A stretch of DNA of 64,000 nt from the NCBI GenBank assembly GCA_965214725.1, contig OZ243973.1, positions 1,799,705-1,863,704 of the forward strand, read 5' to 3'. Within the stretch, counting starts at the first letter, position 1. Every line of letters starts with the position of its first letter. This DNA is from Dehalococcoidia bacterium. Lineage in GTDB: Bacteria; Chloroflexota; Dehalococcoidia; UBA6926. The notes under the pieces were generated by a model. That model had not been told where the DNA came from, did not search any database, and worked only from the letters and a program-made list of their open reading frames with translations. A program made the position numbers and the translations under genes. This document shows positions 1 to 22,777 of this stretch, piece by piece.

Positions 1-554
1 GATCGTGGACATCCCACGACCTGGAAGGGAATCTGCTTGCCAGAGGTGAATCGATTCTGAAGGCTGGCACCATGTTTACTCGCGTAACTATTGATGGGGC
101 CCCTTCCCAATTCAGGGATTGGGGAGTAGTGGAGGATTGGCCTGAGCCTGAGCATCTGCCATGCCTTCCTGCAGAAAGTGCAGCGTCATATGAGGCGCTA
201 CAGGTGGGGAGTGGGCGAACATTCACTCATACTATATCCCTTTCCCCACAGGAAGGCACACTGACGCGACAGTTCTGGGTTGACTCTTCCGGACGCCCGA
301 CTCGTGGACGCAGAACCTTTACACCTCCGGACTCTGTTGCGAGTAACGTTGCCGCAAGTGACACTCAAGCGAATGTATTGGTCATCGATGAAACGTACTC
401 TGGCTACGGCGAGCCAAATATCATCGTGGCGCCCATAGGAGTGTCCATCCCTACGCCAACCCCCGTACTGCCAACCGCCACGCCTGTTGGCCCCACGCCT
501 ACTCCCGTCCCGCCGACGGCCACGCCACCGCCACAATCAAAGACGTCCCCCTAG
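1..554 (+). CDS. Partial CDS with its 5' end outside the window. It is the C-terminal part of a secreted Pro/Thr-repeat protein and is a truncated paralog lacking the Calx-beta domain.
   Basis: The frame is open from the window edge. It ends in a TPTPV(L/P)[19 protein letters not shown] linker whose DNA is near-identical to the tandem repeats at 2794-2975. The last ~35 nt match the 3' end of CDS 568..3330 (TIKDVPL-D) but in a shifted frame. Confidence 0.45.
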
Positions 555-567
555 AGGACTGAAATCC

Positions 568-3330
568 ATGAGAGCAAGAATGGTATCCCTGCATGGCCGG
601 TGGCGCGGCTTCTCCTTTATCCTCTTGGCTGCCCTTGCAATGGCCCTTGTGAGCACCTTGGCCTCCACGTTCCCAAATCCACCCGCCACCAGCGGCAAGT
701 GTGATTTCGGGGATATTGAGAGGCTCGCCGTTCCGACGCCAATCGCCATACCAACTCCCTTGGGTATCATGGGCGGTCCACCATCGCTAGAGTACAAGAT
801 TGAGCGTTCTGATCGCATCGCGCGTGCCTCACTGGTTTCCGCTACCGCGACGGTCGAAACTATACGCAGTGAGGGACGTGGAGTCGCACCTACCTACCGC
901 GGAGTGCAACTCCTCCACTTCAAGATTCATGAGTACCTGAAAGGTGGTGGAGACGATCAACTCCTCATTTTCGTTAGGGATGGCCAGTACGATGTCTACA
1001 CAAGTAAGGAAAGCGCGTTCAGTGCAGCGGAGTGGCGCAACACATCATGGGATAATCATCAGGCAATCCTCTTCCTGAATGCCCCGCTGCTCGCTAATCT
1101 CGCTGGGCGCCATTGCATCCCCGCAGGGGATATCCCGACACATACGGAGAGCGGCGAACGACTGCGCGTTGCGCGATTAATGCGCATTTATGATTCCATT
1201 GCCGAACGTGGATTTCAGTACTCGGTGGAGCATATGAGCCGCGCCTGGCTGCCTGCGCAGCGGCAGCTTTCTGAGGTCGATGCAGCGTTCGCAAGTCATG
1301 AGGGTACGCTGAGGTTCTTCAGCGCGAGGGGGCCCTCCGAGACGATCACTATCGCCGAGCTGAAGAAAGAAATCCGGGATGACGAGAGCGAAGAAAGCGT
1401 AGTGCCGCCCACTGCGACTACGCCACCGTCTGAAGGAACGTCTACAGACAGCTCTTCGGTAGAGTTAAACATAGTGGATTTTGAACCCTGGAAAGGCGCC
1501 GCCGTCGCTTCCGTGGCGGAACGGATATACGCGTCAGATGTCGTGGTGAGAGCCTCGTTGGTGTCCGCGTCGGACGGCAGCCTGCGCTTCCAGGCTGTCG
1601 AGTATCTCAAGAGCTCCGGCCCCTCCGAGTTCACGGTGAGCGCTTCCACTGCCAACCGAAGTACCATTTGGGACGGACGAGAGGCCGTGCTTTTCCTTGG
1701 CGAGCCGCCAAGCGGAGGCGCATCTGATTCAGTACGTTCCACCAACTCAGCCGATTTCCATTTTGCAGACGCGACCTCCTGGAACTACTCCCCGGATCCG
1801 CTGTTCTCCCAAGTCTACTCGGGGGATCTTCCCCAGGGTTACACCGTGGACTCGCGGAACCCGGCGTGGCTGCCTGCGAAATTTGGAAGCTTAGGACCAA
1901 GTGGCTCCTCATTCATCATCGCCTCGACCGACCCAGCAGGTAACTTTCAACCCGTCATCTCTTTGGCGGATCTTCGCGCCACAATAGCGTGGATCGAGGG
2001 TGGGGAGGGCATTAGCGGGTACAACGAGTGTATTCGCGCAAGCCCTGACATCGAACGGTATCATCGGGACTGGGAAGCCTACCATGGACGCCCCTATGAA
2101 CGGTATCAAGAACCGCGTCAGATATCGTCAGGGGCGAGCGCAGGCGCAGTCGTGCATGACTACGATTTACGCAGGAGTGCGCAGTACGATATTCCCTATC
2201 TCACGGGTCCAGATTCCGACCTCTTTCGCGCTCAGAATATAGATGACGACGCATTATCATCCAATGGGTATCTTCACCGACTCGCGACTGCGCGGCCGCT
2301 GCCTGCAGCAACCTACAGTGCTATCTTTCACCTGCAGCGACCGTACGCGATACCGTGTGCCTTCCAGCCTGAGTATGGAGGGTTGGAATTTCTGACAACC
2401 GCCACCGCACCCAACGGCACCATCCATGAGGCGTTCTTTGACCCGGTTGCGCTTCCTGGCGGAAGCGTCGGAGCGGATACGTCCGGCAATGCTGGCGTGC
2501 TGAGCCCGCGCCATATGACGGTCGATGGCAAGAGTTCATCCTTGGAGAGTCTCTCATGGCAGAGCGGCAAGGTGACGCTGACCCTAACTGATGGCATCGA
2601 CTTGACTGGTCTGATCCTGGATGTCATTGATATCGATGGCAATGTCTCGCTCAGTCTCAAGGCCAATGATGGGACGGTGGATTCCACGAAGGAGACCTAT
2701 AGGTGGAGCGTGGCGAATGCGCCGTGGGCGGCGGGAGACCTGCTCATGATCCGTCTCCGTGACGCGAGTACCACTGTTACTCCCGTTACCCCCACCGCCA
2801 CGCCCGGTGGCCCCACGCCAACCCCCGTCCCGCCGACGGCCACGCCCGGTGGTCCCACGCCAACTCCCGTCCCGCCGACGGCCACGCCTGTTGGCCCCAC
2901 GCCTACTCCCGTCCCGCCGACGGCCACGCCTGTTGGCCCCACGCCTACCCCCGTCCCGCCAACGGCCACGCCGACGCCGGCGCCTGATGCCGTTGTCATC
3001 TCCGTGTCGGACGCGAGCGCCGTATCGGAGGGGGAGGTTCTCGAGTTCCGTGTCACGCTCAGCACCGATGAGTACAGCGGCGATCTCCTCGTCAATGTCG
3101 ACGCGCGTGCCGGCACGGCGACGGAGGGCCAGGATTACACTCGGTACAGCAATACGCTGCGGTTCACCAATTTCGCGACGGAGCAGATCGTGCGTGTTCG
3201 CACCTACACGGACTACGACGACGAGGAGGGGCCAGAGACCGTCCAAATCGTTCTCTCAAGCCCCATAGCCGGCGTCCTAGGAAACCACACCGCCACGGGC
3301 ACAATCAAAGACGTCCCCTTAGGAGACTAG
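568..3330 (+). CDS. Secreted Pro/Thr-repeat surface protein. It has a duplicated N-terminal domain, a 14-aa x4 PT linker and a C-terminal Calx-beta domain.
   Basis: The N-terminus [33 protein letters not shown] is a signal peptide. An internal domain duplication is visible ([15 protein letters not shown]... and [13 protein letters not shown]...). The linker is TATP(G/V)GPTPTPVPP x4. The C-terminus [26 protein letters not shown]...[57 protein letters not shown] fits the Calx-beta pattern. I place the start at the ATG at 568, downstream of the ORF-track start at 487. Confidence 0.75.
2794..2975 (+). repeat. 42-bp tandem repeat of about 4.3 copies. It is coding and encodes the PT linker TATP(G/V)GPTPTPVPP.
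   Basis: The period is visible directly in the DNA and in the translation. Confidence 0.85.
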
Positions 3331-3798: not shown

Positions 3799-5592
3799 TT
3801 ATCCTTCGATGTTGCCCGGGATGGACGGACCACCGGGCGTCGCGCTTGGTACACCGGGCGTCGTAATGGTACTTGCCTCACGGAGGCGGATCATGAGCAG
3901 ATCACCCGCCGCCCACGGCGCATCCGCCACAGGCCACGTATAGGTCTTCTTCGCGGAATTCGCCGTCCCATCATTGGCCTTGAGACTGAGGGCCGTATTC
4001 CCATTGAGACTTATGAAATCCAGGGCCAGACTACTCAAATCGATGCCATCAGTTAGTGCCAGTGTCACCCTGCCGCTCTGCCATGAAAGACTCTCCAAGG
4101 ATGAACTCTTGCCATCGACCGTCATATGGCGCGGGCTCAGCACGCCAGCATTGCCGGACTTATCCGCCCCGACCCTGCCGGCCAGCGCAACCGGGTCAAA
4201 GAACGCCTCATGGATGGTGCCCGCGGGGGCGGTCACAGTAACTATCCACTTTAGGTACTCATCTTCAGAATAGAAATTACATGGAACTGCCACGTAAAGC
4301 TGCCAATATTCATGAACGACATATTGCCCCTGAACAAGAGGACGAGACACCGTTACGACCTGACTGTAGCCGTTTTCTGCCGAGCCATCATCATCAATGC
4401 GGGTCGTTCGGAAATGTGCGGCGGAGGGGCCATCCAGCCAGTACCTGTCATATCGGGGAAATCCGTAGTTACCATCGTGGCTCCAAGCCTCACTGCCTTC
4501 CGAAGAACCTGACACTATCGCGGCTTCAAATGTTATCCCTTGCCATGGAACTGCTCGCCGCGCTCTCTCGTGAGCTACTTCAGTTATCAGGCATTCGGTG
4601 TACCCCGGCTTGCTCTCGGCGTTCTTCAGCTTAGCGGCCCAGTCTGCGATCTCTTGACGCAGACTGTTGACCACTATGCGATCACTGACAGGCGCACCAG
4701 GCTCAAAGAGAAAGTGGGTTTGCAAAGATAGAGCGATGGCTGCACGCCTTGCGTCATCCTGCGACTGCGCTGGAAGCGAGGAACCGGGAAGCCATGACCT
4801 ACTAAGAGTGGCGATCGAGTAGTCCCATGGTGTCTGCACCCCATAGTTCGACTGCTGAAGAGTGAATATGCTCACGTCCTGTCCCGCAAGAGCGGACGAG
4901 GAGGGTTCATAGCTTGGATCTGGTCTGTTCAGAAACAAGACGGCTGCGTCAGAATCCCATTGAGTATTGCGTCTGGATAGAGAGTCGTTTGCTTCCGCGA
5001 GGGCCAGAGCGCTTTGGGTGTACACATTGTCTCCTCTGACCACGACTAGAATGGAGGATGTGCCCGACCCTTTCAAATACTCGAAAACAGTGAAACGCAA
5101 CTCCTGAACCGGCCTATAGGATACCGGTCGTCCTGCTCCGTTTTCGATCTCCTCAACGTCTGCCCGAACTGAGTCCAAGGCCCCCCGCACGATGGTGCTG
5201 GAGTGCAAAATTTGCTCGTCCAAAGACGGTGGAACCAGTGAGAGGGGACTCACTCCTGCCCCCTCGTTATAGTAGCCCGTCTCTGTTGCGGCGGTATCGG
5301 CAGTAGCAGTGTTTGGCTGGTTCTCCGGTTCACTAGGTGCAGTTACGTCCGGCACGCCAACGTCGGAGGTATACCGAGCATCAGTATTTGGTTGGTTCTC
5401 TGGTGCACTGGTTGCAGTGACGGTCGCCACGTCAACAAAGGCATCATCAATTTCACCCCGCGGCATAAAGATGCAACTCACATAGAGAAGAAACAGAGTC
5501 GTCAGAATAACCAAAGCGGAGGTATAGCATCTTCGTGACCAGTCTACCTGCCTCTGTGTCGGGGGGGCCTGGTTTTGCGTAGGTCTATCCAT
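3799..5592 (-). CDS. Membrane-anchored paralog of the PT-repeat protein. It has the conserved central domain, a truncated PT tail and no Calx-beta domain.
   Basis: An N-terminal TM segment (CYTSALVILTTLFLLYVSCIF) is present. The 130-aa block [53 protein letters not shown]...[16 protein letters not shown] is about 80% identical to residues ~640-770 of CDS 568..3330. A tandem duplication of about 72 bp is present internally (5314-5420). Confidence 0.7.
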   Translation of the reverse strand: MDRPTQNQAPPTQRQVDWSRRCYTSALVILTTLFLLYVSCIFMPRGEIDDAFVDVATVTATSAPENQPNTDARYTSDVGVPDVTAPSEPENQPNTATADTAATETGYYNEGAGVSPLSLVPPSLDEQILHSSTIVRGALDSVRADVEEIENGAGRPVSYRPVQELRFTVFEYLKGSGTSSILVVVRGDNVYTQSALALAEANDSLSRRNTQWDSDAAVLFLNRPDPSYEPSSSALAGQDVSIFTLQQSNYGVQTPWDYSIATLSRSWLPGSSLPAQSQDDARRAAIALSLQTHFLFEPGAPVSDRIVVNSLRQEIADWAAKLKNAESKPGYTECLITEVAHERARRAVPWQGITFEAAIVSGSSEGSEAWSHDGNYGFPRYDRYWLDGPSAAHFRTTRIDDDGSAENGYSQVVTVSRPLVQGQYVVHEYWQLYVAVPCNFYSEDEYLKWIVTVTAPAGTIHEAFFDPVALAGRVGADKSGNAGVLSPRHMTVDGKSSSLESLSWQSGRVTLALTDGIDLSSLALDFISLNGNTALSLKANDGTANSAKKTYTWPVADAPWAAGDLLMIRLREASTITTPGVPSATPGGPSIPGNIEG

Positions 5593-6102
5593 GCCGGTCA
5601 GTGCTCTCCATATATTTCTTCGATGGCGAACTCATCTGCGCTGCCAAGACCGCACCACGGCGAGAAAAATCCGCACGGAGGCGGGACAAATCGCGCTTCA
5701 CCGTCGGGGGGACGAGAGTTGGCGTGGGAGCCGTGTGAGACTGCCCTCCTGTTCGGCATGATTCTCCTATCTTCATCCAGTGAAAAGCATGAATTGGCTG
5801 GGACTATTGGAGCGCACAACCTACACCGTGGCCACGAGGAGGAGCAGAACAATGAACGCTGCCGCAACGATGAGCCGCGCCTTTCCGTATCCTTGAACGC
5901 CGGACTGGGACCCCATGTGCTAGGCCTGCCTCTCCTGAAAGCGCGGCGGGGGGTGGGGTGGGAGCCGCCAGAATCTGCCTTTTCGGCATAATACACGCCA
6001 TGCCAACATCTACCAAATGACTGTAGCGCAACGGGCGGGACTGTTCGTCCACCGTCCGCCACCGCTCGTCCCTCGGCGCTGCTCAGGATGGATGGGCGGC
6101 AC

Positions 6103-6150
6103 GACCCGATGGATACCCGCTTTCGCGGGTATGAGGGGAGGGGGGGGCGG
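6103..6150. repeat. Second copy of the 35-nt hairpin repeat plus G-tract. It lies directly upstream of the tRNA-like repeat at 6180.
   Basis: See 3495-3557. Confidence 0.6.
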
Positions 6151-6179
6151 TGTGGCGGATAAGGGGGAGTTGGCAGGTC

Positions 6180-6227
6180 TGGTACCCCTGGGCGGACTGT
6201 ATTGCGAACCTTTGAGGTGAGGGTGGG
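6180..6227. repeat. 48-nt repeat resembling a tRNA 3' end. It forms a direct-repeat pair with 21130-21177 and is a candidate left att or boundary site of the island.
   Basis: 45 of 48 positions are identical to 21130-21177. The first 11 nt (tggtacccctg) plus the 6 nt of upstream flank are identical to the 3' end and flank of tRNA-Arg at 27254-27270. It retains a T-loop-like gttcgcaatcc on the minus strand. Confidence 0.6.
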
Positions 6228-6485
6228 GTTACCGGTGAGGACGCTCAAATGAGAATGTTGCTACTTGCCGATCCCCTGCTTGCGGACCCAGATGATGATC
6301 TTGGACCGATCGAGCGAGCATTCCAGCTCATCATGGATATGCTCCCCCATCCTCAGCAGGAAGAACTAGGCTGAGAAAGTGACAAAGCTCTTCGTCAGTC
6401 GTCCCGCCTTTGCTCCTCGTGCCCGGATAAACCAACTCTATCCGCCCAAGCTAGGTACTCATTGCAGATTGAGGTCAGGTCGCCG

Positions 6486-6514
6486 CTTGCTCTGACAATA
6501 TAGGTATGTATAAT
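6486..6514 (+). promoter_or_regulatory. Sigma70-like promoter. The -35 is TTGCTC (6486-6491), followed by a 17-nt spacer and an extended -10 TGTATAAT (6507-6514).
   Basis: A consensus -10 is rare in this GC-rich DNA. It sits 54 nt upstream of the ATG at 6568, which has a GGAG ribosome-binding site. Confidence 0.55.
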
Positions 6515-6524
6515 GCACTATAGC

Positions 6525-6537
6525 CTGACAATGTCAG
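6525..6537. promoter_or_regulatory. Perfect palindrome CTGACA-a-TGTCAG between the -10 and the RBS, a candidate operator. A related half-site CTGACAAT lies at 6492-6499.
   Basis: Seen directly in the sequence. The position is typical of a repressor operator. Confidence 0.35.
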
Positions 6538-6567
6538 ACCGAGAACCAGTGCAAGGAGAAACGCCCA

Positions 6568-7188
6568 ATGCCTGAGGGTGACCGATTCGACAAGCTGATT
6601 CGACGCGGCTGGGACGACGTCTTGGCTGGCATTGAAAGTGACGATGCAGCGCCGTATGAGATTGCGGCCCAATTGATCGTTCCCCTGACGCGAGACGTAA
6701 AGAATGGCGGCGGATTACCGGGCCTAGACAAGGTGGGCGGCATCGTAGCCGCGTGCGTGGGATCGGGCGGGATCGAGGGCGCCTTCAGTGCGCTGGATCG
6801 CGTCGTAATCGAGCATAATGGCCATCGTCACACTGTGGTGCTAGCTCGAGCTGCAAAGACTCTTCTGCTAACTCAGGAAATAGCTGTGACACTTAGCGAG
6901 CACGCGTTTGCCACTGCCAGACTCATCGAACAGACCTGTCATGACTTGGTAGACAACGTGTTCTTCGGCGTAGGACGATACCGATTGATCGAATCGGGTA
7001 GATTCTCGAGCGAAGGGGAAGCTCGAGAATTCGAGCGCCTCGTCCACGAAGCCCTGGCGCCCGCTATTCGAGGGATGGCGGTGCAGCTTATGGTCGACTC
7101 CACAGGCAAGGCAATCAAGGTGCCCAGGTCAAGAACACCCAAGCTCAGCACGCAAGACATCCTGAAGCAAGACATCAACCCAGTCTGA
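6568..7188 (+). CDS. 206-aa hypothetical protein, first gene of the QueC-like module.
   Basis: It has an RBS (aaggagaaacgcccATG) and is followed 12 nt later by the next CDS. I recognise no motif. Confidence 0.7.
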   Translation: MPEGDRFDKLIRRGWDDVLAGIESDDAAPYEIAAQLIVPLTRDVKNGGGLPGLDKVGGIVAACVGSGGIEGAFSALDRVVIEHNGHRHTVVLARAAKTLLLTQEIAVTLSEHAFATARLIEQTCHDLVDNVFFGVGRYRLIESGRFSSEGEAREFERLVHEALAPAIRGMAVQLMVDSTGKAIKVPRSRTPKLSTQDILKQDINPV

Positions 7189-7200
7189 GGAATCACGACG

Positions 7201-8553
7201 ATGACCTGCTACTTCGATTTCGCGCAAGAGTCGCCGGGAGCCATTGACGAGGCGCATTACCACCTTAGCAGCCGGCTTATTGAGGAGCCGTTCATGCAGC
7301 GCCTGACCCCTATACAGAGGGACGTATTGGACATCGCAATGGCCGCTTATACGGCAGACAGGCGCTCCCGCCGAGACCGCCGCAGGACGACTTCAACGGG
7401 ACAACGCGAGATCCACGTAAAGATGAAAGTACGAGAGCCGGATACTTGGAATAATACCGAAGTAACGATAGAGTTGCGCCAACTGTTCGAGTGGCTGAGC
7501 GGTGACCGCTGGATCATTGAACTCATCCCTGGCGAGCGCCTAAGGGCGGGAGACCCTCAGCAACACTACCTGTTTGCCGGACGGCCAAAAGCGCCTGTCG
7601 CTGTCTCACTATTCAGTGGCGGTTTGGACTCCTTGGCGGGGTCCGCAACGCTACTGGCAGGGAATGAATTTTGCTCCCATGTCCTCGTCTCAGCCTACAC
7701 AAACAGCCGCCTGAGGTCTCAGCAATCCCGACAATTTGGATTGATCAAGGAATCCCTGTGTGACGTGCCTGAGGAATACCGCACCGATTTGGAACACGTT
7801 GCTGTTCCAATGGGAATCAACAAGTATCAGGGGAAGGATCCCGAGAAGTCGCAAAGGATGCGCGCCTTAGTCTACCTGACGATCGGTATCGTAACGGCCA
7901 TCCAAGCAGGCTCAGACACGTTATATGTCCACGAGAATGGAGTTGGCGCACTCAACTTGCCGCTCAATGAGACTCAACTCGGTGTCGACAAATACCGAGG
8001 CGTCCATCCCCATTCGCTATTGATGGTACAGAAGCTCTATTCCAGAGTATTCGAGCAACAATTCCGCCTCAAAAATCTGTTCCAGTTCGCCACTAAGGCG
8101 GAGATGTGTACTGCGCTGCCGAGCGCCAGGCTGTTGAAGGCCGTACGAGAAAGTGTATCGTGCGACAAGTTTCCCCTTCGCATATCAGGGAAGCCCCAGT
8201 GCGGGGTGTGCACCTCCTGCATACTCCGGCGGCACGCTATTGAGTCTGCTGGACTCCAGGAGCATGACCCCGTATCGAGTTATCGGTACGACATTCTTGG
8301 CTCAAGAGACGGCGTCCCCGTAGATGATCGCTTTCCCATGCAAGTTATGCGAGGGCAGGCCAACCGCATTCGTGCGGCAATTGAGTCCGACGACGCTTGG
8401 GTGGAATTGGTGCGACTCTACCCCGACCTTTATGTCCACACGCAAGAAATCGCTGAGTTGAAGTGCATCTCAGTTGACTCCTCTCGGGAACAGACTCTCG
8501 ATCTGTATCGCCGATATTGTATTGAGTGGGACAACCTCACTCATACCCTCTAG
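7201..8553 (+). CDS. QueC-like PP-loop ATPase (7-cyano-7-deazaguanine synthase family) with about 130-aa N-terminal and about 100-aa C-terminal extensions.
   Basis: The PP-loop motif is VAVSLFSGGLDSLAGS at residues ~135-150. The QueC-type zinc motif is QCGVCTSCILRR (C-G-x-C-x-x-C-x-x-R). It has a gagg RBS. Confidence 0.8.
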   Translation: MTCYFDFAQESPGAIDEAHYHLSSRLIEEPFMQRLTPIQRDVLDIAMAAYTADRRSRRDRRRTTSTGQREIHVKMKVREPDTWNNTEVTIELRQLFEWLSGDRWIIELIPGERLRAGDPQQHYLFAGRPKAPVAVSLFSGGLDSLAGSATLLAGNEFCSHVLVSAYTNSRLRSQQSRQFGLIKESLCDVPEEYRTDLEHVAVPMGINKYQGKDPEKSQRMRALVYLTIGIVTAIQAGSDTLYVHENGVGALNLPLNETQLGVDKYRGVHPHSLLMVQKLYSRVFEQQFRLKNLFQFATKAEMCTALPSARLLKAVRESVSCDKFPLRISGKPQCGVCTSCILRRHAIESAGLQEHDPVSSYRYDILGSRDGVPVDDRFPMQVMRGQANRIRAAIESDDAWVELVRLYPDLYVHTQEIAELKCISVDSSREQTLDLYRRYCIEWDNLTHTL

Positions 8554-8576
8554 CGCCCCACCAGGAGGGACCGCCA

Positions 8577-9806
8577 ATGCAGAGAAGAAACGTGTTCAAC
8601 ACCTTGGATCCACGAATTATTGGCCGCCGTCTGCAAGAGGCGAGGAAGGCGCGCGGCCTTACCCAGGAGGAGGTTGCCACCGAACTGGGAACCGCGCGCA
8701 CGACTATAACTGCGATCGAGAAAGGAGAGCGGCGGGTTCAGCCCCAAGAACTGCTACGACTGTCTGAACTCTACGGCCACACTCTCGGGAATCTCATGAG
8801 AGAGCGAAAGCCGGCTGAGTCATTTGGAGTCCAATTGCGAGCCTTTTTCAAGGGAGTGGACTCACCAGTGGTCGCCCGTGACCTCCAAGAAGCCGTGAGC
8901 GAGTTTCAGGAGCTATGCGAGGACTATACGGCGCTCGAAGACTTGAGCGGGATTGAGCCCCGCCGAGACTACCCAATGGAACTCAGAGTGGGTCGATCAC
9001 GCCCGGAATTGGCGGCAGAGGAGGCTGCTGAGAGCGAACGCAACCGGCTCGGTCTTGGAGACGGCCCGCTCGATTCGCTGAGAGAGTTGCTTGAGAATGA
9101 TGTCGACCTGCGAATCTTCAGCATGCGAATGCCGTCACAAATTGCGGGAATGTTCGCCTACTCGGAGGAGTTGGGCGGGTGCATCGCCGTCAACAGCCGG
9201 CACCCTGAAGAGCGCCGTCGATGGTCAATGGCCCACGAATACGGGCATTTCTTGTCCGGGCGGTATCAAGCTGAGGTCAGCAATACTCTGCCTGCACGTA
9301 AGCCGCCGATGGAGAGATTCGCCGACACCTTTGCGCGCTTCTTCCTAATGCCTTCCGCCGGATTGCGTAGGCGATTCAACCAGGCCATTCGCGTCAGTGG
9401 AGGGCGCATTTCGGTTGCAGACTTGGTACGACTAGCCCACCACTACGCTGTGTCGGTGGAAGCAATGATACTGCGACTGGAGGAGCTACGGCTTATCTCC
9501 TTAGGAACGTGGCAACGACTCAAGGATCAGAGATTTAGAGTGAGGGAAGCGCAAGCGGAGCTTGGCCTCGAGCCGCTTTCTCAGCAAGGGAATGTGCTCC
9601 CTCGTCGGTACATGCTACTTGCTGTTCGGGCATTCGCTGACGGAAAGATCACCGAAGGTCAGTTGGCCCGCTACTTAAGGACGGATAGGGTGTCGGCGCG
9701 CGAAATTGCGGGGAGGCTATCTGAACAGGATAGCGTCGACGAACACGGCGATATCCAATCGTTCTCGCTAGATCTGTCATCGCCGGTGGTCATGCCCGGC
9801 CGATAA
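8577..9806 (+). CDS. XRE-family HTH regulator fused to an ImmA/IrrE-type zinc metallopeptidase.
   Basis: The N-terminus LTQEEVATELGTARTTITAIEKGERRVQPQELLRLSELYG is a Cro/C1 HTH. The HExxH motif is MAHEYGHFLSG. I place the start at the ATG at 8577 with an AGGAGG RBS; the ORF-track start at 8526 is probably upstream of the real start. Confidence 0.85.
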   Translation: MQRRNVFNTLDPRIIGRRLQEARKARGLTQEEVATELGTARTTITAIEKGERRVQPQELLRLSELYGHTLGNLMRERKPAESFGVQLRAFFKGVDSPVVARDLQEAVSEFQELCEDYTALEDLSGIEPRRDYPMELRVGRSRPELAAEEAAESERNRLGLGDGPLDSLRELLENDVDLRIFSMRMPSQIAGMFAYSEELGGCIAVNSRHPEERRRWSMAHEYGHFLSGRYQAEVSNTLPARKPPMERFADTFARFFLMPSAGLRRRFNQAIRVSGGRISVADLVRLAHHYAVSVEAMILRLEELRLISLGTWQRLKDQRFRVREAQAELGLEPLSQQGNVLPRRYMLLAVRAFADGKITEGQLARYLRTDRVSAREIAGRLSEQDSVDEHGDIQSFSLDLSSPVVMPGR

Positions 9807-9820
9807 GGGACGATGCAGAC

Positions 9821-10381
9821 ATGTTGGGCCATGCTCCTCCCACCCTCGTCGTCGACGCAAGTACACTGATCAACCTCTACGCGACCAGCCGGTTACGGGA
9901 GATCGCACTCGACTTGCCCCACACCATCTTTGTCTCGCGCTGTGTTTTGGAGAGAGAAAACCTATACGTCAGGGTTCAAGAAGCGGCTGGTACGATTTCG
10001 AATCGACACATCGAGTTGACCGCGCTAATCACTGATGGCCTTATTCAGCTTGTGGAAACGAGTGGTGAAGCGGAGGCGCAGCTCCTGATCGAACTAGCGA
10101 CTGAGTTGGGTGACGGCGAGGCGCAAACCGCAGCAATTGCCATTCATCGTGGCTACATAGTGGCCACAGACGACCGCAAGGCCAGAAGACTTCTAGCCGA
10201 GCACTGGCCGGGCGTGCGGGTTCTGACGACAACCGAAATCCTAAGAATCTGGTCCGAATCGAGCACGATAACGCCGCAAGAGCTGCGTGACGCATTCACA
10301 GCCATTCAGACAGGTGCCTGTTTCATCCCGCCGACAAACGATCCCGAGTACAACTGGTGGCAGAGCCTTATGCGAGAGTGA
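9821..10381 (+). CDS. PIN-like nuclease-fold protein, similar to DUF4411-type partners of ImmA/IrrE regulators.
   Basis: An N-terminal VVDASTLINL strand with an acidic residue and a downstream ATDD are consistent with a PIN fold. It is immediately downstream of the HTH-ImmA gene with a 14-nt gap. Confidence 0.6.
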   Translation: MLGHAPPTLVVDASTLINLYATSRLREIALDLPHTIFVSRCVLERENLYVRVQEAAGTISNRHIELTALITDGLIQLVETSGEAEAQLLIELATELGDGEAQTAAIAIHRGYIVATDDRKARRLLAEHWPGVRVLTTTEILRIWSESSTITPQELRDAFTAIQTGACFIPPTNDPEYNWWQSLMRE

Positions 10382-11040: not shown

Positions 11041-14000
11041 CTAGGATGGCCCCAACTTGCTTCCAGGTCTTTCAGTGGCAGGTGCCGGCTCGACGTAAGT
11101 TGCAAGAAAGTCCATCTCCAGGAGCCACCGGCGGAACGACTCGTTGTCACTGAACTGCTTGAACAACTCGGTGTGGTCGGCCAAGAGCTCGGTCATGGCC
11201 CGTCCCAAGGCCTTATCGTGCTCAATCCGTGCGTTCTGCCGGTCGGAGTTGGCCATTGCGTTCTGGTATGCCCTGTCGCCCGCTACCTTCGCGGGCAACT
11301 CCTCAGCGATCACCCTTTCGATCTTGTCCTGGTCCTTCCACTCGATGTTGCCAAACCGGTCATTGAACTCCCTGACGATATTCGAGAGTCGGTCCATCTC
11401 CGGTTCCGGCTTTTGTCCTCCGCCCTCGGTGGGGACGGGTTCGATCTCTGCGTCCTCGTCGGGTAGCTGGATGTCCTGCACAGCCTGCTTCTCAACCCGG
11501 TAGCTGTCCATGTCTATGGTTCCAAGAATCCCCTTGGAGAAGTCGTCCTCTACAGGAGCGGGCAGCTTGGGAACGAGGAAGGTCAGGAAGATGGAGAGCT
11601 TCTCCCATTCCGCGTAGGTGTAGGGCAGGATGGCCGCCAAGAACCCGTAGGACCGCAGGAACGCCTTCGCCTTGCCCTTGAAGTCCACCTGGCCGTCTTC
11701 GTCCAACTGCTCTCGGTAGACCGAGACGCAAGCGTCCAGGATAGGATCGAGCCGGTCGCGATCGTCTCCGGAAAGGTATCGCTCCACGAGCTTGTCAATC
11801 TGAGCCGGGCCGTAGACCTGATACCCGTCCAGAGCTGCCTTGAGGTCGTGAAGCCTGTCGGGGTCGGTCTCCTCCGCCAGAATCGTGGTCCGGTAGTAGG
11901 GGGTGAAGCCGGCCTGGATCGTGTCGGCGTCATTGGCGAAGTCCAGCACGAAGGCGTCGTGTTTCTTGGGATGCGCCCGGTTGAGACGGGAGAGCGTCTG
12001 CACTGCCTTCACTCCTGACAGCGGTTTGTCGACGTACATCGTGTGCAGCAGAGGTTCGTCGTAGCCGGTCTGGAACTTGTCGGCGCAGACCAAGAAGCGG
12101 TACGGGTCCTCCTGAATCTTGTCGGTGATCAGGTTGGACGAGAAACCGTTGAGGGACGCCTCGGTGACATGCGCGCCGCCGTACTCGTGCTCGCCGGAGA
12201 AGGCGGCGATGGCTTGGTAGGGACTCTTGCGTTCAGCCAGGTAGTCCCGGATTGCATAGAAGTAGGTGATGGCCCGCTGGACGCTGCTCGTCACCACCAT
12301 GGCCCGTGCCTGCCCGCCTATCTTCTGCAGGCCGGCCACTTGTTCGTGGAAATGGTCGACCATGATTTCTGCCTTCAGCCGAATGGCATGGTCGTTGTCC
12401 TCCACGTATCGGCGCAGCTTCTTGCCTGCTCGCTTAGTGTCGAATTCTGGGTCCCCCTCAACTGTCTTCACCAGTCGGTAGTAGCTGTTCACCGGCGCAT
12501 AGTCCTTCAGTACGTCGATGATGAACCGCTCTTGGATGGCCTGCTTCATTGTGTAGGAGTGGAATGGCGCGTGCCTCGTATTCCCGCCTTCCGAAACGGG
12601 CGTGCCGAATATCTCCAGGGTCTTGTTCTTGGGTGTGGCGGTGAAGGCGAAATAGCTGGCGTTGGCAAGGAGCTTCCGGGACTCCATCAGCCGATTGATC
12701 TTGTCCTCGGTGGTCTCGTCTTCCTCTTCGGCGCCCGCTTCTCCCAACGCCATGGACACCGACGCCGACGTCCGCCCTCCCTGACTCGAATGTGCCTCAT
12801 CAATGATGATGGCGAACTTGCGCCCGCGGTGCTCATTGCCTATGGCGTCCAGGATGAAGGGAAACTTCTGGACGGTGGTGATAACGATCCGCTTGCCTTC
12901 TTGGAGCAACCGCCGCAGGTTGCCGGAGGTTTCGGCATGGCCCACGATGGAGCCGACTTGGGCGAACTGCCTGATGGTGTCCCGTATCTGCCTGTCCAGC
13001 ACCTTGCGGTCCGTGACGACGACGGTGGTGTCGAACACTGCTGCGTCATCCCGCTCCAGCCCTATCAGCTGGTGGGCTAGCCATGCAATGGAATTGGACT
13101 TGCCGCTGCCCGCCGAGTGCTGGATCAGGTACTTGGAACCGGCTCCCTTAACAGACGCGTCAGCCAGTAGCTTCCGCACTACGTCCAGCTGGTGGTAGCG
13201 GGGCCATACTTGCTCCCGCCTCTTTCGGCCCGTCTTGTCGTCCTTGCCCTCCACGATCTGGGCATAGTTCTCGATGATGTCGGTCAGCCCATTGCGGGTG
13301 AGGACCTGCTTCCACAGGTAATCGGTCTTGAGGCCATTGGGGTTGGGCGGGTTGCCCGCGCCGTCATCCCATCCCTTGTTGAAGGGCAGGAACCAAGATG
13401 CCTTGCCACTGAGTTGCGTGCAGAACTGCACTTCGTGGTCGTCAACGGCAAAATGGGCGAGACATCTGCCCAGCTCGAAGAGCTTCTCCCGGGGATTGCG
13501 GTCTCGCTTATACTGTTCTACGGCGTCATCTACCGTCTGCTTGGTCAGGCTGTTCTTCAGCTCGAACGTTGCGACGGGCAGGCCGTTGATGAACAAGCAC
13601 AGGTCTAGGGCAAGCTGCGCGTTGTCGTTGCTGTACCGGAGCTGCTTGGTCACGCTAAAGCGGTTCTGCCCGTACAGGACGCCGGCTTTCTCATTCCCTG
13701 GCGACGGTGTGCCGTACATGAGGTTGATCTGGTGTGGGCCGTGCTTGATGCCGTTGCGGAGCACGTCAATGGTACCGCGACGGGTTATCTCTCCCTGCAG
13801 GCGGGCCAGGAATCTGCGCCTTGATGGGCTGTCCGTGCCCAAGTCCAGCGATTCGGCTGCTTTAAGTTGAGTATCGTGGAGGAAGTCCGAGAGTTGAGCG
13901 AGGTCCACGCAGTACTCCCTGTCGTAGTCTTGGGCGTCGCCGCTTATCCACCCTGCGCCATAGCTGGACGGCCGCTCGCGCACCACCCCGCCCTGCGGCG

Positions 14001-14073
14001 GGCCCCACTCAGCGCCCGTCAGAGCCTCGCAGATAAGGCTCTCCAGTCCCTTCTCGGTGGTATCGGTTGCCAC
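11041..14073 (-). CDS. hsdR: Type I restriction enzyme R subunit.
   Basis: 1010 aa. Walker A is QHSAGSGKS and the DEAH box is IIDEAHSS. The helicase motifs follow. Confidence 0.92.
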   Translation of the reverse strand: MATDTTEKGLESLICEALTGAEWGPPQGGVVRERPSSYGAGWISGDAQDYDREYCVDLAQLSDFLHDTQLKAAESLDLGTDSPSRRRFLARLQGEITRRGTIDVLRNGIKHGPHQINLMYGTPSPGNEKAGVLYGQNRFSVTKQLRYSNDNAQLALDLCLFINGLPVATFELKNSLTKQTVDDAVEQYKRDRNPREKLFELGRCLAHFAVDDHEVQFCTQLSGKASWFLPFNKGWDDGAGNPPNPNGLKTDYLWKQVLTRNGLTDIIENYAQIVEGKDDKTGRKRREQVWPRYHQLDVVRKLLADASVKGAGSKYLIQHSAGSGKSNSIAWLAHQLIGLERDDAAVFDTTVVVTDRKVLDRQIRDTIRQFAQVGSIVGHAETSGNLRRLLQEGKRIVITTVQKFPFILDAIGNEHRGRKFAIIIDEAHSSQGGRTSASVSMALGEAGAEEEDETTEDKINRLMESRKLLANASYFAFTATPKNKTLEIFGTPVSEGGNTRHAPFHSYTMKQAIQERFIIDVLKDYAPVNSYYRLVKTVEGDPEFDTKRAGKKLRRYVEDNDHAIRLKAEIMVDHFHEQVAGLQKIGGQARAMVVTSSVQRAITYFYAIRDYLAERKSPYQAIAAFSGEHEYGGAHVTEASLNGFSSNLITDKIQEDPYRFLVCADKFQTGYDEPLLHTMYVDKPLSGVKAVQTLSRLNRAHPKKHDAFVLDFANDADTIQAGFTPYYRTTILAEETDPDRLHDLKAALDGYQVYGPAQIDKLVERYLSGDDRDRLDPILDACVSVYREQLDEDGQVDFKGKAKAFLRSYGFLAAILPYTYAEWEKLSIFLTFLVPKLPAPVEDDFSKGILGTIDMDSYRVEKQAVQDIQLPDEDAEIEPVPTEGGGQKPEPEMDRLSNIVREFNDRFGNIEWKDQDKIERVIAEELPAKVAGDRAYQNAMANSDRQNARIEHDKALGRAMTELLADHTELFKQFSDNESFRRWLLEMDFLATYVEPAPATERPGSKLGPS

Positions 14074-14087
14074 GCTATGCTCGCCTC

Positions 14088-15524
14088 TCAGCCGTTCACT
14101 TCGGACGGTTGACCGTCCTCATTGTCCAGCACTGGGCCATCCTCGTCTATCGGACCCTCCTCGTCGTCCTCATCCGGCAGCTGCTCCGCCGCCGCCCGCA
14201 CGTCCAACTTGCCCGTCACCACATCCGCGATGAGCCGGGTGCGGTACTCCTCTACCAACTCCACCTGCCGCCGCGCCCGTTGGACGACCGCATCGATCCT
14301 CGCCGTCTCCCGTTCCAGATGCTCAACGATGGCGCGCTGCTCCGGGAGCTGTGGGAGAGGGAGTGGCATGTTGGCATATTTCTCTCCGTTCACGTTCTCA
14401 ATGGTCGATGAGATTGCCATCACACGCAGGAAGGCGTTGAATGCCTCCGCCTTTGTAAAGAAGAAGAGATACTTAGGGAGAATTGCCGCGCTCGGGACGA
14501 AGCGCACTAGATATCCTGCGTAGGCGCACGGTCCATGCAAGCCAGCTGCGTAAAGGAAGCTGCGCCCGACCGTTCCGCTCCGGGATAGCAAGATGTCACC
14601 ATCGCTTAGACCATATCCCTCTGCTAGCTCTGGCGGGAGAAACACGCCCTTACCAAGAAGTCTGCCATCTTCAGCAATGTCCGTGGTCCGTACGAAGCGA
14701 ATGCCCACCGCTTGATACTGAGTGGCAGCAACATTTGCCCCGTAGAGTGCGGACTCGGAGCAGACTTGCTTGAGCCGCCGCACGTCCCAATGCTCCGGCA
14801 CGTCGCCCAGCCACTCTACGCCGGAGGGTTTGAGGCGGACGTTGGGGTCGAGGCCACGGGTAACGGCTCGGTTGACGACGACCTGCTTCTCTTCCTCAAG
14901 CAGTCTGATCAGTTTCCGCTTAGCGCCAACGTACCGCCGGACGCGCCGGTCCACGTAGTCAAGGTAGCGGACGATGGCGCGCTGCTCGGGGAGGGGAGGG
15001 AGGGGCAACGACAGATACTTTAGCTGGCCACTGTAGATGTGCATAATGGTGATGCCGCGCCCCATTAGAGATTTCTGCGTCTGCGTGGCGGGGCAGTCCA
15101 GCGCGTAGCCTGCAAACTTGGGTTCAATTGGAATTGTTGGCCGAAATATGATCAAGTCTCCGCCGCAGACAATCTGAGCGTGCATCAAGTTCACGGCGGA
15201 CTTACCGATCTCTTCAATTGTCTCTCCTGAATTAGGAAAGAGAACGTCACCCCTAGTGATTGGGGTATAGGCGCTGGCCTTCTCGGGTGAGACGAAACTC
15301 CGTGTCTGGTTTATGAAGAACTTGTGAGTAGTGTAGAGGTCTCCATACCGGACACAAGGTATCCCGTCGAGGACCTCGTCATCCTTCGTTCCGCCTGTGC
15401 CTTTGGAGAAGACACCAACCCTTCCAAGCTGGACAATTTCCCAATGCTCAGGCACATCGCCGAGCCACTCGACGCTTGAGGGCTTGTAGGCGAGGTAGGG
15501 GTGGGGCTCAACTGACCGGGCCAT
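14088..15524 (-). CDS. hsdS: Type I RM specificity subunit.
   Basis: Two target-recognition domains, each preceded by the conserved repeat PSGVEWLGDVPEHW, and central and C-terminal LPPLPEQRAIV coiled-coil repeats. I place the start at the internal Met (MARSVEPH...) to reduce overlap with the upstream ORF. The ORF track gives 15602. Confidence 0.88.
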   Translation of the reverse strand: MARSVEPHPYLAYKPSSVEWLGDVPEHWEIVQLGRVGVFSKGTGGTKDDEVLDGIPCVRYGDLYTTHKFFINQTRSFVSPEKASAYTPITRGDVLFPNSGETIEEIGKSAVNLMHAQIVCGGDLIIFRPTIPIEPKFAGYALDCPATQTQKSLMGRGITIMHIYSGQLKYLSLPLPPLPEQRAIVRYLDYVDRRVRRYVGAKRKLIRLLEEEKQVVVNRAVTRGLDPNVRLKPSGVEWLGDVPEHWDVRRLKQVCSESALYGANVAATQYQAVGIRFVRTTDIAEDGRLLGKGVFLPPELAEGYGLSDGDILLSRSGTVGRSFLYAAGLHGPCAYAGYLVRFVPSAAILPKYLFFFTKAEAFNAFLRVMAISSTIENVNGEKYANMPLPLPQLPEQRAIVEHLERETARIDAVVQRARRQVELVEEYRTRLIADVVTGKLDVRAAAEQLPDEDDEEGPIDEDGPVLDNEDGQPSEVNG

Positions 15525-15930
15525 ACTGCCAACCTCGCTTGTTGGCGAATTCTGCAAGCCGCTTCGCAGTATTCCTGACACTATGCTTGGCCAGATCCCC
15601 AAAGATGATTATGCAGTGTTGAGGAAATGGATCAGGATCACTTTTCACGCTCAACTGTTGCTCTCCGCATTCCAACACGCTGACCGCCATCACGCCCATA
15701 GACCCGTAGTTAAGGCGATCCACGTAGTGATCCCATGCATCCCTGGCCGTAATCTGGTCACCGTCGTACACCGAGAGACTTTGACGGTCTTTAGGGGTAG
15801 GAGTGAACGCCTGGGATGTAACGCGCCCATCCTGAGCAAAGTTAGGATGAATCTGGCGAAGCAGAAGTGTCTGGCTATTCACGTCACCTTGCTCTGCAAC
15901 AAGTGCAGCTCGCTGCCAAGCCATGCCCAA
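15508..15930 (-). CDS. Hypothetical 140-aa protein (gene C), embedded between hsdM and hsdS.
   Basis: An intact ORF on the same strand. It overlaps the end of gene B and the start of hsdS, which suggests translational coupling. I recognise no motif. Confidence 0.55.
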   Translation of the reverse strand: MGMAWQRAALVAEQGDVNSQTLLLRQIHPNFAQDGRVTSQAFTPTPKDRQSLSVYDGDQITARDAWDHYVDRLNYGSMGVMAVSVLECGEQQLSVKSDPDPFPQHCIIIFGDLAKHSVRNTAKRLAEFANKRGWQYGPVS

Positions 15931-16679
15931 TCTTGCGGGCTCTCCAATGCCAAGTCTCGTTCATAGGATTCATTTGAGCCCAAATCGAGACAATGCCATT
16001 CGCCGGAATGGGTCTCGAGATCGATCTCTAAACTAGGCCGATATGGGCCGATGTCCCACTCAAATTGCACGGCGCCCTCTGGGGTGGGATAAACAAAAGG
16101 AACAGGCGCTCCAAAAAACCATTTGGAAACAGCATCTTGAAGCCAAGCCAAGCCCTCGGGGCTAGGGGCTTTACCGTAGCCCTCGCCCCACTCGCTCGCA
16201 GGCTGCATACCGCCCGCCCAACCATCCTCCAAATTCTTGAATCCTTGGAGCCGAGCTAGAATGCCCAAGAGGTCGTCAGACATTGGGGTGTAGGGCCATA
16301 GTGCGATATCAACTGCCAAGGAGGATAACTCTCCTGGAGTCCCGCTGCTATGATCGTAATCGCTGACTATTCCAAACTGGACTGGATCGGCGCCATAGGA
16401 ACTGGGCCAATACAACCGACGTGCTGCCCGTGGCAACTGCCCAAACTTGGGGGGCAGCTTATGGAATACCATGTGCCCTCTCAACGCAAACGGAATACGC
16501 CCAGCGATCCGTGATGAGCTCTCGCCGTACCCAATTCTTGCACCAAGCGAACTGGTAAACGGTGGTCCTTCTTCGCCGACAGCCCAAGGATATCTTTGTG
16601 CAATTTCTGAAGGTGAATCAATTCCCTGTCGCAGACGGTCTGTGCTCGCCCGGGACGTATCCACTGTTGCGCGAGTCAC
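15879..16679 (-). CDS. Hypothetical 266-aa protein (gene B), embedded in the type I RM operon.
   Basis: It is ATGA-coupled to gene A (16676-16679). It is Trp- and Gly-rich with no recognisable motif. Confidence 0.6.
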   Translation of the reverse strand: MTRATVDTSRASTDRLRQGIDSPSEIAQRYPWAVGEEGPPFTSSLGARIGYGESSSRIAGRIPFALRGHMVFHKLPPKFGQLPRAARRLYWPSSYGADPVQFGIVSDYDHSSGTPGELSSLAVDIALWPYTPMSDDLLGILARLQGFKNLEDGWAGGMQPASEWGEGYGKAPSPEGLAWLQDAVSKWFFGAPVPFVYPTPEGAVQFEWDIGPYRPSLEIDLETHSGEWHCLDLGSNESYERDLALESPQDWAWLGSELHLLQSKVT

Positions 16680-17344
16680 CGTGCCCCTCCGTCTAATCGC
16701 GCGACTATATCGTGCGCTTGGTCCCAGACAGATTCTAAGGATTGACGAACACTTCCAGCATCCGGCAATGTGTGTTCCTCCTTATGCAAATTCAGGCTCA
16801 TGAAGACTCGATCCCCATTCGGGTCATTGAAGCGTGGCTCCAGCTGAATGGTCCAGCGGCCCATTGGCGAGTCAAAGTATAGTTGCCCCATTGCCCCTAC
16901 CACGGACCAATTGGCTGGCACAAACTCGCTCTTGCCAAACAGTCTAGCCCCCAAATACTTGAGCGAAGGTGCCTCCGAAATCTGACCGAAAACCACCTCT
17001 ATATTGTAGCCGTACGCGCGGAGCGCGCGCTGTTGCGCGCCAGCCGTTTCGCTGGCCTTTTCGAGCACTTGGCCCAAGTATCGCAAGTCACTGCGTGATG
17101 GGAATTCTCGCTCGATGACCGTCCGATCCGGCAACATCTTCACGCTGATTCGTTCACGCTGCATCTCTGAACCACTCGGCAGTTCCTTCTTGCCTACGGG
17201 CACTCCAACTGTCAGGCCTACGTCATCCAGAAGCACATCGCTACCGACTCTCTCCGAGAAAGCGGAGACAGATTCGAGGTCTCGGAGTAATCCTAGCCCG
17301 ACTAGGACTACGTTTGCCTTCAATACATCGCTGACACTAGCCAC
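16676..17344 (-). CDS. Hypothetical 222-aa protein (gene A), embedded in the type I RM operon.
   Basis: It starts 170 nt downstream of hsdM on the same strand. I recognise no motif. Confidence 0.6.
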   Translation of the reverse strand: MASVSDVLKANVVLVGLGLLRDLESVSAFSERVGSDVLLDDVGLTVGVPVGKKELPSGSEMQRERISVKMLPDRTVIEREFPSRSDLRYLGQVLEKASETAGAQQRALRAYGYNIEVVFGQISEAPSLKYLGARLFGKSEFVPANWSVVGAMGQLYFDSPMGRWTIQLEPRFNDPNGDRVFMSLNLHKEEHTLPDAGSVRQSLESVWDQAHDIVARLDGGAR

Positions 17345-17514
17345 GTAGTTTTCCCTTGCTCATCCCGCTCAGTATGCCACTATGCCATAGGCTCCAAAGT
17401 ACTGTCGACGGGAAATCTGTGGCCAAGCCGCATGGAACCACGATGCCCCGTGCGCGAGGCCGGACCGATTGGAGACACCGCATGGGCCCCAACATCCCGA
17501 TTGCAGTCAAACAA

Positions 17515-22774: not shown

Positions 22775-22777
22775 GGT

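Follow-up and report, generated by a model that had tools for sequence, protein, structure and literature searches.

The cassette and its genes

The DNA analysed here (the window) is a stretch of 64,000 nucleotides (nt) from contig OZ243973.1 of a Dehalococcoidia bacterium (Chloroflexota), and all coordinates count from its first letter. Positions 6487 to 10381 of the window form one operon of four genes, which encode, in order, a small partner protein, a QatC-like enzyme, a fusion of a helix-turn-helix (HTH) domain with an M78 metalloprotease (HTH-M78), and a PIN-domain nuclease. We refer to this unit as the cassette and conclude that it probably represents a relative of the Qat anti-phage system that has not been described before. 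Its features are the following.

6487..6514, + strand: putative sigma-70 promoter, with -35 TTGCTC at 6487-6492, a 16-nt spacer and -10 TATAAT at 6509-6514, as read from the sequence
6492..6497, unstranded: putative upstream operator half-site CTGACA; a TGACA half-site lies ~33 nt 5' of the palindrome in most cassette loci
6525..6537, unstranded: putative operator palindrome CTGACAaTGTCAG, perfect, with the core TGACA-W-TGTCA at 6526-6536
6568..7188, + strand: partner protein, 206 aa, all-alpha, with the N-terminus MPEGDRF and Trp15; a QatB analogue by gene position, homology to QatB not being shown
7201..8553, + strand: QatC-family PP-loop ATP pyrophosphatase, 450 aa, with SGGLDS, a four-Cys zinc site, a QatC-type N-terminal extension and a clade-specific C-terminus
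8577..9806, + strand: fusion of an XRE-type HTH with an M78 (ImmA/IrrE) metalloprotease, 409 aa, with HEYGH; presumed operator-binding repressor/antitoxin
9821..10381, + strand: PIN-domain (VapC-like, DUF3368-type) nuclease, 186 aa, carrying a conserved C-terminal extension rich in Trp; presumed toxin/effector

A preliminary description of this DNA had recognised the first two open reading frames (ORFs), 6568-7188 (+) and 7201-8553 (+), and both are present with the 12-nt gap that it gave. It had taken them for a two-gene module, possibly a minimal system, but the unit has four genes in 73 of the 80 genomic loci described below and is therefore not minimal. The XRE/ImmA regulator that it placed directly downstream is there, but belongs to the cassette, as does the PIN gene after it.

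Conservation and distribution of the cassette

A scan of 185,579 species genomes returned at least 551 relatives of the enzyme, of which we inspected the best 80 loci, calling the four genes with hidden Markov models (HMMs) built here for the four cassette proteins. The order partner, enzyme, HTH-M78, PIN is kept in 73 of these 80 genomic loci (71 by HMM, and two with a variant partner by eye). Contig ends interrupt four further loci, and the enzymes of another two (L072 and L084) come from a different QatC subfamily, without M78 or PIN genes. The same four-gene cassette is found in five additional loci, the window among them, and on one IMG/VR viral contig. Conservation of the gene pair across genomes, which had been proposed as a check, thus identifies the 206-aa ORF as the conserved partner of the enzyme.

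Within this best 80 of at least 551 relatives, carriers span at least seven phyla: Chloroflexota (Dehalococcoidia, Caldilineaceae, Ktedonobacterales and Nitrolancea), Acidobacteriota, Gemmatimonadota, Verrucomicrobiota, Actinomycetota, Cyanobacteria and Deferribacteres, the last two represented by a Synechococcus metagenome-assembled genome (MAG) and a Deferribacteres MAG. Enzyme identity among cassette loci falls to ~30%. The partner stop overlaps the enzyme start by 4 nt in 34 of 79 loci, and the gap between the M78 and PIN genes lies between -4 and +30 nt in 66 of 80.

No gene family recurs in the flanks, any one family being common to at most 4 of the 80 genomic loci; a fifth conserved cassette gene was considered and rejected, as these flanks vary. 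Because no other gene family recurs there, we regard the cassette as self-contained and mobile and, because the flanking genes are not conserved, associated with no particular mobile element. A few copies are disrupted: at L035 a 427-aa transposase-like ORF (5389-6672) occupies the partner position, at L028 (8360-11312) an insertion of ~1.7 kb interrupts the HTH-M78 gene, and the partner genes of L005 (6113-6983) and L030 (6346-6983) carry frameshifts.

The enzyme belongs to the QatC family

Judged by its sequence, the enzyme is a member of the QatC family but not a canonical QatC. The relationship to QatC that had been suggested holds: the PADLOC QatC model matches the enzyme at 9e-48, and the solved QatC chains 9zee_B and 9vlk_A match it at E ~1e-23. 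The NCBIfam QatC model (NF041925) gave 182.5 bits (1.2e-53), below its 280-bit cut-off and over model positions 11-328 of 398 only. Other cassette enzymes scanned score 154-179 bits on this model, and cassette enzymes as a whole about 150-185, compared to 528 bits over positions 2-398 for a canonical plasmid QatC. That control came from canonical Qat plasmid loci fetched for the purpose, all of which carry KAP NTPase and TatD genes. What remains unaligned in the window enzyme is its C-terminal extension, the part that in QatC contacts QatB in crystal structures.

The PP-loop (LFSGGLDSLAGS, residues 137-148) and the zinc motif (QCGVCTSCILRR, residues 333-344) are present as first described. The position of the PP-loop some 140 residues into the protein and the length of about twice that of QueC, which had been presented as an unusual extension of QueC, are real but represent ordinary QatC-family architecture (PMC13279940), because the QatC structures align with the enzyme including the N-terminal extension: the alignments to 9zee_B and 9vlk_A begin at enzyme residue 35-42, within that QatC-specific segment. 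The elements of the QatC fold recognised in the enzyme are the N-terminal extension, SGGxDS, RxRxxxF/Y, HP, P(x)4TK and the CGxCxxCxxRR zinc site, with P(x)4TK reading NLFQFATK in the window, where Leu replaces Pro. Across the cassette family, SGGLDS is kept in 80 of 85 enzymes and the zinc motif in 78 of 85.

At the QatC site STRTTHP the window enzyme reads KYRGVHP, so that Tyr and Gly stand in place of Thr278 and Thr280, two residues that are invariant and both essential in QatC (PMC13279940). The canonical QatC proteins have TRT in nine of nine cases. In the cassette family the site follows [Y/T/S/A]-R-[G/A/S], with YRG in 37 enzymes, TRA in 14, SRG in 10, and other variants. Tyr-Arg-Gly was therefore rejected as a family hallmark, since it is specific to the Chloroflexota clade and other members begin with T, S or A.

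The partner protein

The partner ATG is preceded by AAGGAGA at a distance of 8 nt. The protein gave no match to Pfam, PADLOC, NCBIfam, PHROGs or PDB sequences, and its AlphaFold2 (AF2) model (mean predicted local distance difference test score, pLDDT, 81; helix from residue 3 predicted at low confidence) gave no significant fold match with Foldseek, consistent with its earlier portrayal as a protein without motifs. It nevertheless defines a conserved family, where an ORF lacking conservation beside the enzyme would have spoken against the pair: a profile search of 1.84 billion representatives found at least 319 clusters of partner relatives ~200 aa long, 162 of them at E <= 1e-10, and among 5.8 billion proteins a word-indexed search picked up only 10 relatives, each of which begins MPEGDRF even where overall identity is as low as 33%. 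The family start is nearly always M-P-[D/E]-x-D-[R/I/V]-[F/I/L], with a verrucomicrobial variant starting MPTDGxDF. By comparison, nine canonical plasmid QatB proteins all begin MGTS, and the NCBIfam QatB model (NF041924), which gives canonical QatB 65-207 bits, matched none of the three partners scanned (window, L039 and L083).

The residue at the first Thr position of the enzyme varies together with partner residue 3. Among loci L005-L084, enzymes with Tyr (YRG or YKG) go with Glu3 in 35 of 35 cases, and those with Thr, Ser or Ala go with Asp3 in 33 of 33. The same switch is seen inside the Dehalococcoidia, where three loci combine SRG with MPD. Such co-variation fits direct contact between the enzyme and the partner's N-terminus.

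At the other end of the partner, residues 174-203 form a conserved C-terminal tail after the helical core (L174, P178-equivalent, P186, R/K184, T195 and L199), predicted to be mostly unstructured with a short terminal helix. The tail could serve in docking or in recognition by a protease.

The HTH-M78 and PIN genes

The third gene was assigned the start 8577 because AGGAGG lies 8 nt before this ATG and homologues are 408-409 aa long. Its product matches Pfam HTH_3 (2e-14) and Peptidase_M78 (3e-18), 16 RmrA models of PADLOC (best 4.9e-27) together with CapP (9e-20) and CapH (6e-7), the NCBIfam spr1629 repressor/antitoxin model, and PHROG 2439, a phage transcriptional regulator family (1.6e-38). 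HExxH is present in 80 of 83 HTH-M78 proteins.

The AF2 model of the fourth protein (pLDDT 93.5) found PIN, VapC, Nob1 and HARP structures as its best PDB matches in Foldseek (E 6e-4, probability 1.0). D12, E46 and T116-D117-D118 are invariant, and E100 is conserved at 90% or more. Pfam assignments are PF11848 (precomputed) with weak PF01850 and PF20698, and the PADLOC RmrT models did not match the protein. A pair of HTH-M78 and PIN (DUF3368) genes also stands alone among metabolic genes at L094 (4793-6546), L095, L096 (4767-6546) and L097; these stand-alone pairs lack the exact palindrome and have TGACA/TGTCA-like half-sites upstream at other spacing.

A conserved operator upstream of the partner gene

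The perfect palindrome that had been noted upstream of the gene pair is present, and recurs as a conserved putative operator. Of the 97 loci fetched, 64 contain TGACANTGTCA, 63 of them a single time and L082 as two adjacent copies. In each of the 64 it sits immediately 5' of the partner gene and at no other place, compared to about one chance match expected in the ~1.3 Mb scanned (estimated from locus lengths). Of 69 cassette loci with a placeable start, 57 have TGACA[A/T]TGTCA upstream of the partner, typically ~45 nt before the start codon. Information is near-maximal at all 10 specified positions of the core (the TGACA and TGTCA arms), and the central base is A or T. The intergenic sequence around the operator showed no conservation in the cross-locus comparison, and the exact operator was not found before the HTH-M78 gene in cassette loci. 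Within the window alone the palindrome is within chance (two matches at one mismatch or fewer versus 0.84 expected, the exact match occurring once), so that its significance comes from conservation across loci and not from rarity in the window. An operator core with one mismatch (TGACAATGTCC) at 30388-30398, far from the cassette, fits chance.

The putative promoter, whose layout is shared with the closest relative of the window (L002), had been called a near-consensus extended -10. Its TATAAT is indeed perfect, but TG directly abuts the hexamer (TGTATAAT), and it is therefore not the canonical extended form (TGnTATAAT). A scan for consensus promoters found no + strand site, missing this one because TTGCTC agrees with the -35 consensus at only three of six positions. 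In many loci the cross-locus consensus (TTGACA as the left arm of the palindrome, a 17-nt spacer and tAnnnT) can itself be read as a promoter. For the window we rejected the palindrome's TTGACA arm as a -35 and preferred the upstream TATAAT promoter, because the former would have AGTGCA at the -10 position. The upstream promoter, which fits better here, places the palindrome around the transcription start. HTH-M78 is the obvious candidate for the protein that binds the operator, because its HTH region is highly conserved among the five sequences compared.

Relation to known systems

QatABCD is an anti-phage system, reportedly so described by Gao and colleagues in 2020. The cassette resembles it in its ~450-aa PP-loop enzyme with an N-terminal extension, the SGGxDS, RxRxxxY, HP and TK motifs and a four-Cys zinc site; in a small all-alpha partner encoded directly upstream, with a conserved extreme N-terminus and a Trp ~15-18 residues in; and in an operon-encoded nuclease and a defence-island setting. 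It differs in the partner, which begins MP[DE]xD rather than the MGTS of QatB and has neither detectable homology to QatB nor a long disordered tail; in the enzyme, which in the window has Tyr and Gly for Thr278 and Thr280 and whose counterpart of the QatB-binding C-terminal extension is unaligned; and in the remaining genes, an HTH-M78 repressor-protease and a PIN protein instead of the KAP ATPase and TatD, under an operator of their own that is conserved. The canonical partners QatA and QatD are absent, as had been claimed: no KAP NTPase, TatD, CD-NTase or que gene lies beside the cassette in the window, and KAP and TatD genes are absent from the four loci for which Pfam annotation was already available. 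The flanks of the 80 genomic loci, which were not scanned specifically for either, have no recurring family.

In QatB the tail MGTS...P16/W18 is essential and inserts into QatC (PMC13279940, PMC13639016, PMC13376578), and the near-invariant N-terminus and Trp15 of the partner parallel this tail. In Qat and type IV CBASS alike, the partner's N-terminus lies in the active site of the QueC-family enzyme and its Gly2 is essential; for Qat, an N-terminal QatB peptide carrying the NDG modification has been detected (PMC13279940, PMC13376578, PMC13639016, bioRxiv 10.1101/2025.04.06.647259). QatBC on its own protects against lambda-vir, and the nuclease QatD is a further protein bound by QatB (PMC13279940, PMC13639016).

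Similarly, the Cap9-CdnD pair of type IV CBASS has a QueC-family enzyme thought to act on the N-terminus of a neighbouring protein (bioRxiv 10.1101/2025.04.06.647259), and the window enzyme shares with Cap9 and QueC a Tyr at the position that stacks on deazaguanine. Unlike type IV CBASS, the cassette has no CD-NTase, Cap10 or Cap11, the CD-NTase having rightly been reported as absent beside the pair. In type IV CBASS the CD-NTase starts MGGS, Cap10 is TGT-like and Cap9 carries YxQ / YxDC motifs. The cassette enzyme is a 450-aa QatC-like protein compared to ~185 aa for Cap9, the Asp that reads the nucleobase edge in Cap9 is Gly in the window enzyme, and the acceptor would be Pro, not Gly. PADLOC, applied to the four cassette proteins, found no CBASS component beyond a CapP/CapH-like regulator.

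The second half of the cassette is reminiscent of RosmerTA, a toxin-antitoxin (TA) system that defends against phage, for which an ImmA-HTH antitoxin with a PIN toxin is a known Rosmer-like type (PMC10440598). HTH-M78 matches RmrA and is followed by a PIN toxin-like gene, a pairing seen in the NetFlax network (PMC10440598); in contrast to RosmerTA, the pair is permanently joined downstream of the QatC-like enzyme and partner, shares their promoter and operator, and has no RmrT match. CapH/CapP, ImmR/ImmA and DdrO/IrrE likewise combine an XRE-type HTH repressor with an M78 protease, and the corresponding role here would be that of a defence-operon repressor relieved by proteolysis. In the cassette both functions are fused in one 409-aa protein within the operon, followed by a toxin-like gene. 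The last protein has the VapC-like PIN fold (Foldseek matches 1y82, 1v8p and VapC4 5h4g) and the conserved Asp/Glu/Asp-Asp, and differs from VapC in a ~60-residue C-terminal extension with invariant Trp and Pro and in an upstream 'antitoxin' that is HTH-M78 and not VapB.

A literature search covering QueC with M78 and PIN, QatC-like enzymes and deazaguanylation found no published description of this architecture, and in a survey of the QueC family KAP_NTPase and TatD are the only neighbours listed for the QatC cluster (PMC13329287). Of the libraries used here (PADLOC, NCBIfam, Pfam and PHROGs), none recognises more than single components (QatC-like, RmrA-like) or contains a model for the partner or the PIN protein, and existing sources label the enzyme a queuosine synthase. 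Current annotation thus overlooks the cassette.

A proposed mechanism and its alternatives

Taken together, the cassette resembles a Rosmer-like TA module with a QatBC-like module fused to it upstream, both under one operator, a reading we favour because the HTH-M78 and PIN pair also occurs alone and an ImmA antitoxin with a PIN toxin is a recognised Rosmer-like type. We estimate a probability of roughly 0.6 that it is an autorepressed four-gene unit whose enzyme acts on the partner N-terminus and controls the HTH-protease/PIN toxin pair. An HTH-M78 dimer would bind the TGACA-W-TGTCA palindrome and the upstream half-site, repressing the operon, and would also restrain the PIN nuclease, as in Rosmer-type TA pairs. 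The QatC-like enzyme would form a complex with the 206-aa partner, whose N-terminal peptide, beginning Pro-[Glu/Asp]-x-Asp after Met removal, would occupy the active site with Trp15 as an anchor. Following Cap9-CdnD and QatC-QatB, the enzyme would adenylate a carboxylate, possibly 7-carboxy-7-deazaguanine, and transfer it to the partner N-terminus. Phage infection or DNA damage would alter this state, whereupon the M78 protease would inactivate its own HTH/antitoxin module, the operon would be derepressed, and the released PIN nuclease would degrade RNA and abort the infection. PIN would thus stand in for the TatD nuclease QatD, and HTH-M78, in regulation or sensing, for the KAP ATPase QatA; the partner may also bind the nuclease, as suggested by the QatBCD complex (PMC13639016).

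A more specific proposal, which we offer tentatively and regard as doubtful, is that the enzyme adds a previously unseen modification (a nucleobase or other carboxylate-derived group) to the partner Pro or the adjacent acidic residues, and that the modified partner switches the M78 protease and so releases the PIN toxin. If true, this would be an immune pathway in which protein modification gates a TA pair, and a natural system in which the output of QatBC-type enzymes could be read directly. A repressor-protease with a PIN toxin makes the output of the cassette easier to interpret than that of Qat, with its enigmatic KAP ATPase and TatD; the acceptor N-terminus would be Pro-acidic instead of Gly, and the exceptionally conserved operator offers a handle on regulation. 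The hypothesis is directly testable, since the cassette is carried by the cultured strains Nitrolancea hollandica Lb, Propionicicella superfundia DSM 22317, Nonomuraea sp. B19D2 and Spirillospora sp. NPDC052242.

Several points weigh against the proposed mechanism. Comparisons of the partner with QatB were not significant by phmmer against the PDB, by hhalign (probability 17%) or by reciprocal hmmsearch, nor was the fold similarity significant (Foldseek E 3.9; template modelling, TM, score 0.35). The N-terminal residue of the partner would be Pro (in some Ala, Val or Thr) and not the essential Gly of QatB and CdnD, and the disordered tail of 30-90 residues in QatB has no counterpart in the partner, so the chemistry of the cassette may differ. 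Phylogeny confounds the Tyr/Glu co-variation. The two halves need not be functionally coupled, because HTH-M78/PIN also stands alone, and of at least 551 genomic relatives the 80 best were examined. In addition, the chemistry of QatC and the way in which modified QatB stops phage are left open in several 2026 papers, three of them with QatBC structures (PMC13279940). Defence, toxicity, operator binding and protein modification are all properties that we infer.

The stand-alone pairs at L094-L097 are also what one would expect if a minimal QatBC-like pair and an ordinary Rosmer-like TA pair, with no biochemical link, simply travelled together. This explanation would accommodate the findings that QatB and QatC alone suffice against lambda-vir (PMC13279940) and that an ImmA-type antitoxin with a PIN toxin is a known TA type (PMC10440598). 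We consider it unlikely, given that order and tight spacing persist across at least seven phyla, in 73 of 80 genomic loci and down to ~30% enzyme identity, that the exact operator lies only before gene 1 and is lacking from the stand-alone pairs, and that, besides L035, the only genomic loci of this kind, the other-subfamily loci L072 and L084, have the enzyme without M78 and PIN. Also unlikely in our view is a module for the maintenance and induction control of a mobile element (ImmR/ImmA with an addiction toxin), in which the QatC-like pair would serve the element's regulation and not defence against phage. HTH plus M78 is the ImmR/ImmA architecture that governs induction of integrative and conjugative elements and prophages (PMC10440598), some copies adjoin integrase, AlpA, DnaB-like or insertion sequence genes, and both the viral-contig copy in IMG/VR and the PHROG 2439 match would suit such a role. 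Yet many copies lie amid restriction-modification (RM), TIR, GmrSD and TA genes outside recognisable elements, the flanking genes vary, and both halves have defence systems as their closest characterised relatives.

A canonical QatABCD that has lost qatA and qatD would likewise present a QatC-family enzyme after a small protein of unknown function with no KAP or TatD gene nearby. Such decay is very improbable: NF041924 finds canonical QatB and none of the three partners scanned, canonical QatC reaches 528 bits on the QatC model and cassette enzymes 150-185, and the cassette has another N-terminal motif, has lost Thr-x-Thr and keeps an alternative four-gene layout across phyla. To a housekeeping QueC of preQ0/queuosine synthesis with extra domains we give next to no credence, although the SGGxDS PP-loop, the CxxCxxC zinc motif and a weak Pfam QueC match are shared. 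That match (PF06508) reaches 21.1 bits, below the gathering cut-off of 22; TIGR00364 QueC does not match the window enzyme; at 450 aa the enzyme far exceeds the ~220 aa of QueC; it matches QatC structures best, over the N-terminal extension as well; and que genes adjoin the cassette neither in the window nor at the other inspected loci. An end-to-end alignment with QueC beside que neighbours, which had been named as grounds for abandoning the idea of a distinct enzyme, is thus not what we found. Furthermore, canonical QatC does not complement a queC deletion (PMC13329287).

A third QatC-family architecture

A further layout appears to be undescribed. It is found at L072 (6066-8812), at L084 (4691-7404) and in ~50 of the IMG/VR loci L099-L168 (for example L101, 1269-3948), and makes up the majority of matches on predicted viral or prophage contigs. 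It comprises a ~260-aa partner starting MGH-x-R-L-G, followed directly by a 600-720-aa QatC-like protein whose C-terminal 250-300 residues have no Pfam match. For the MGH-type partner of L072 the PDB offered no relative. Neither HTH-M78 nor PIN genes were detected beside this layout with the four HMMs, and there is usually no sizeable ORF directly downstream. An IMG/VR scan with a P. aeruginosa QatC fragment gave no match. QatC-family enzymes thus occur with at least three distinct partner types (MGTS, MGHxRLG and MP[DE]xD). This points to protein modification directed at the N-terminus as a general class in bacterial immunity.

Surroundings of the cassette

The RM genes that had been reported to adjoin the gene pair form a type I system next to the cassette.

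11041-19677, - strand: type I RM system directly after the cassette, with hsdR at 11041-14073, hsdS at 14088-15602 and hsdM at 17515-19677

Three ORFs without a Pfam match (15508-15930, 15879-16679 and 16676-17344) lie between hsdS and hsdM. Neighbours at other cassette loci are often defence or mobile-element genes, among them RES, HicB, AbiEi and Fic genes, TIR, GmrSD and Eco57I genes, and an integrase.

Upstream, the ~900 nt before the cassette (5593-6486) contain only overlapping, spurious-looking ORFs and no tRNA; RNA families were not searched. Beyond them lie two large convergent paralogues, at 487-3330 (+) and 3799-5592 (-), with long near-identical stretches (e.g., FFDPVAL) and Pro/Thr-rich repeats; one has a Calx-beta domain and the other no Pfam match. 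Further downstream, at 21311-25939 (+), an ImuB-like (IMS family) gene is followed by one for a DnaE2-type error-prone polymerase alpha subunit, an SOS mutagenesis cassette. The sole tRNA of the window is tRNA-Arg(CCG), at 27260-27334 (-).

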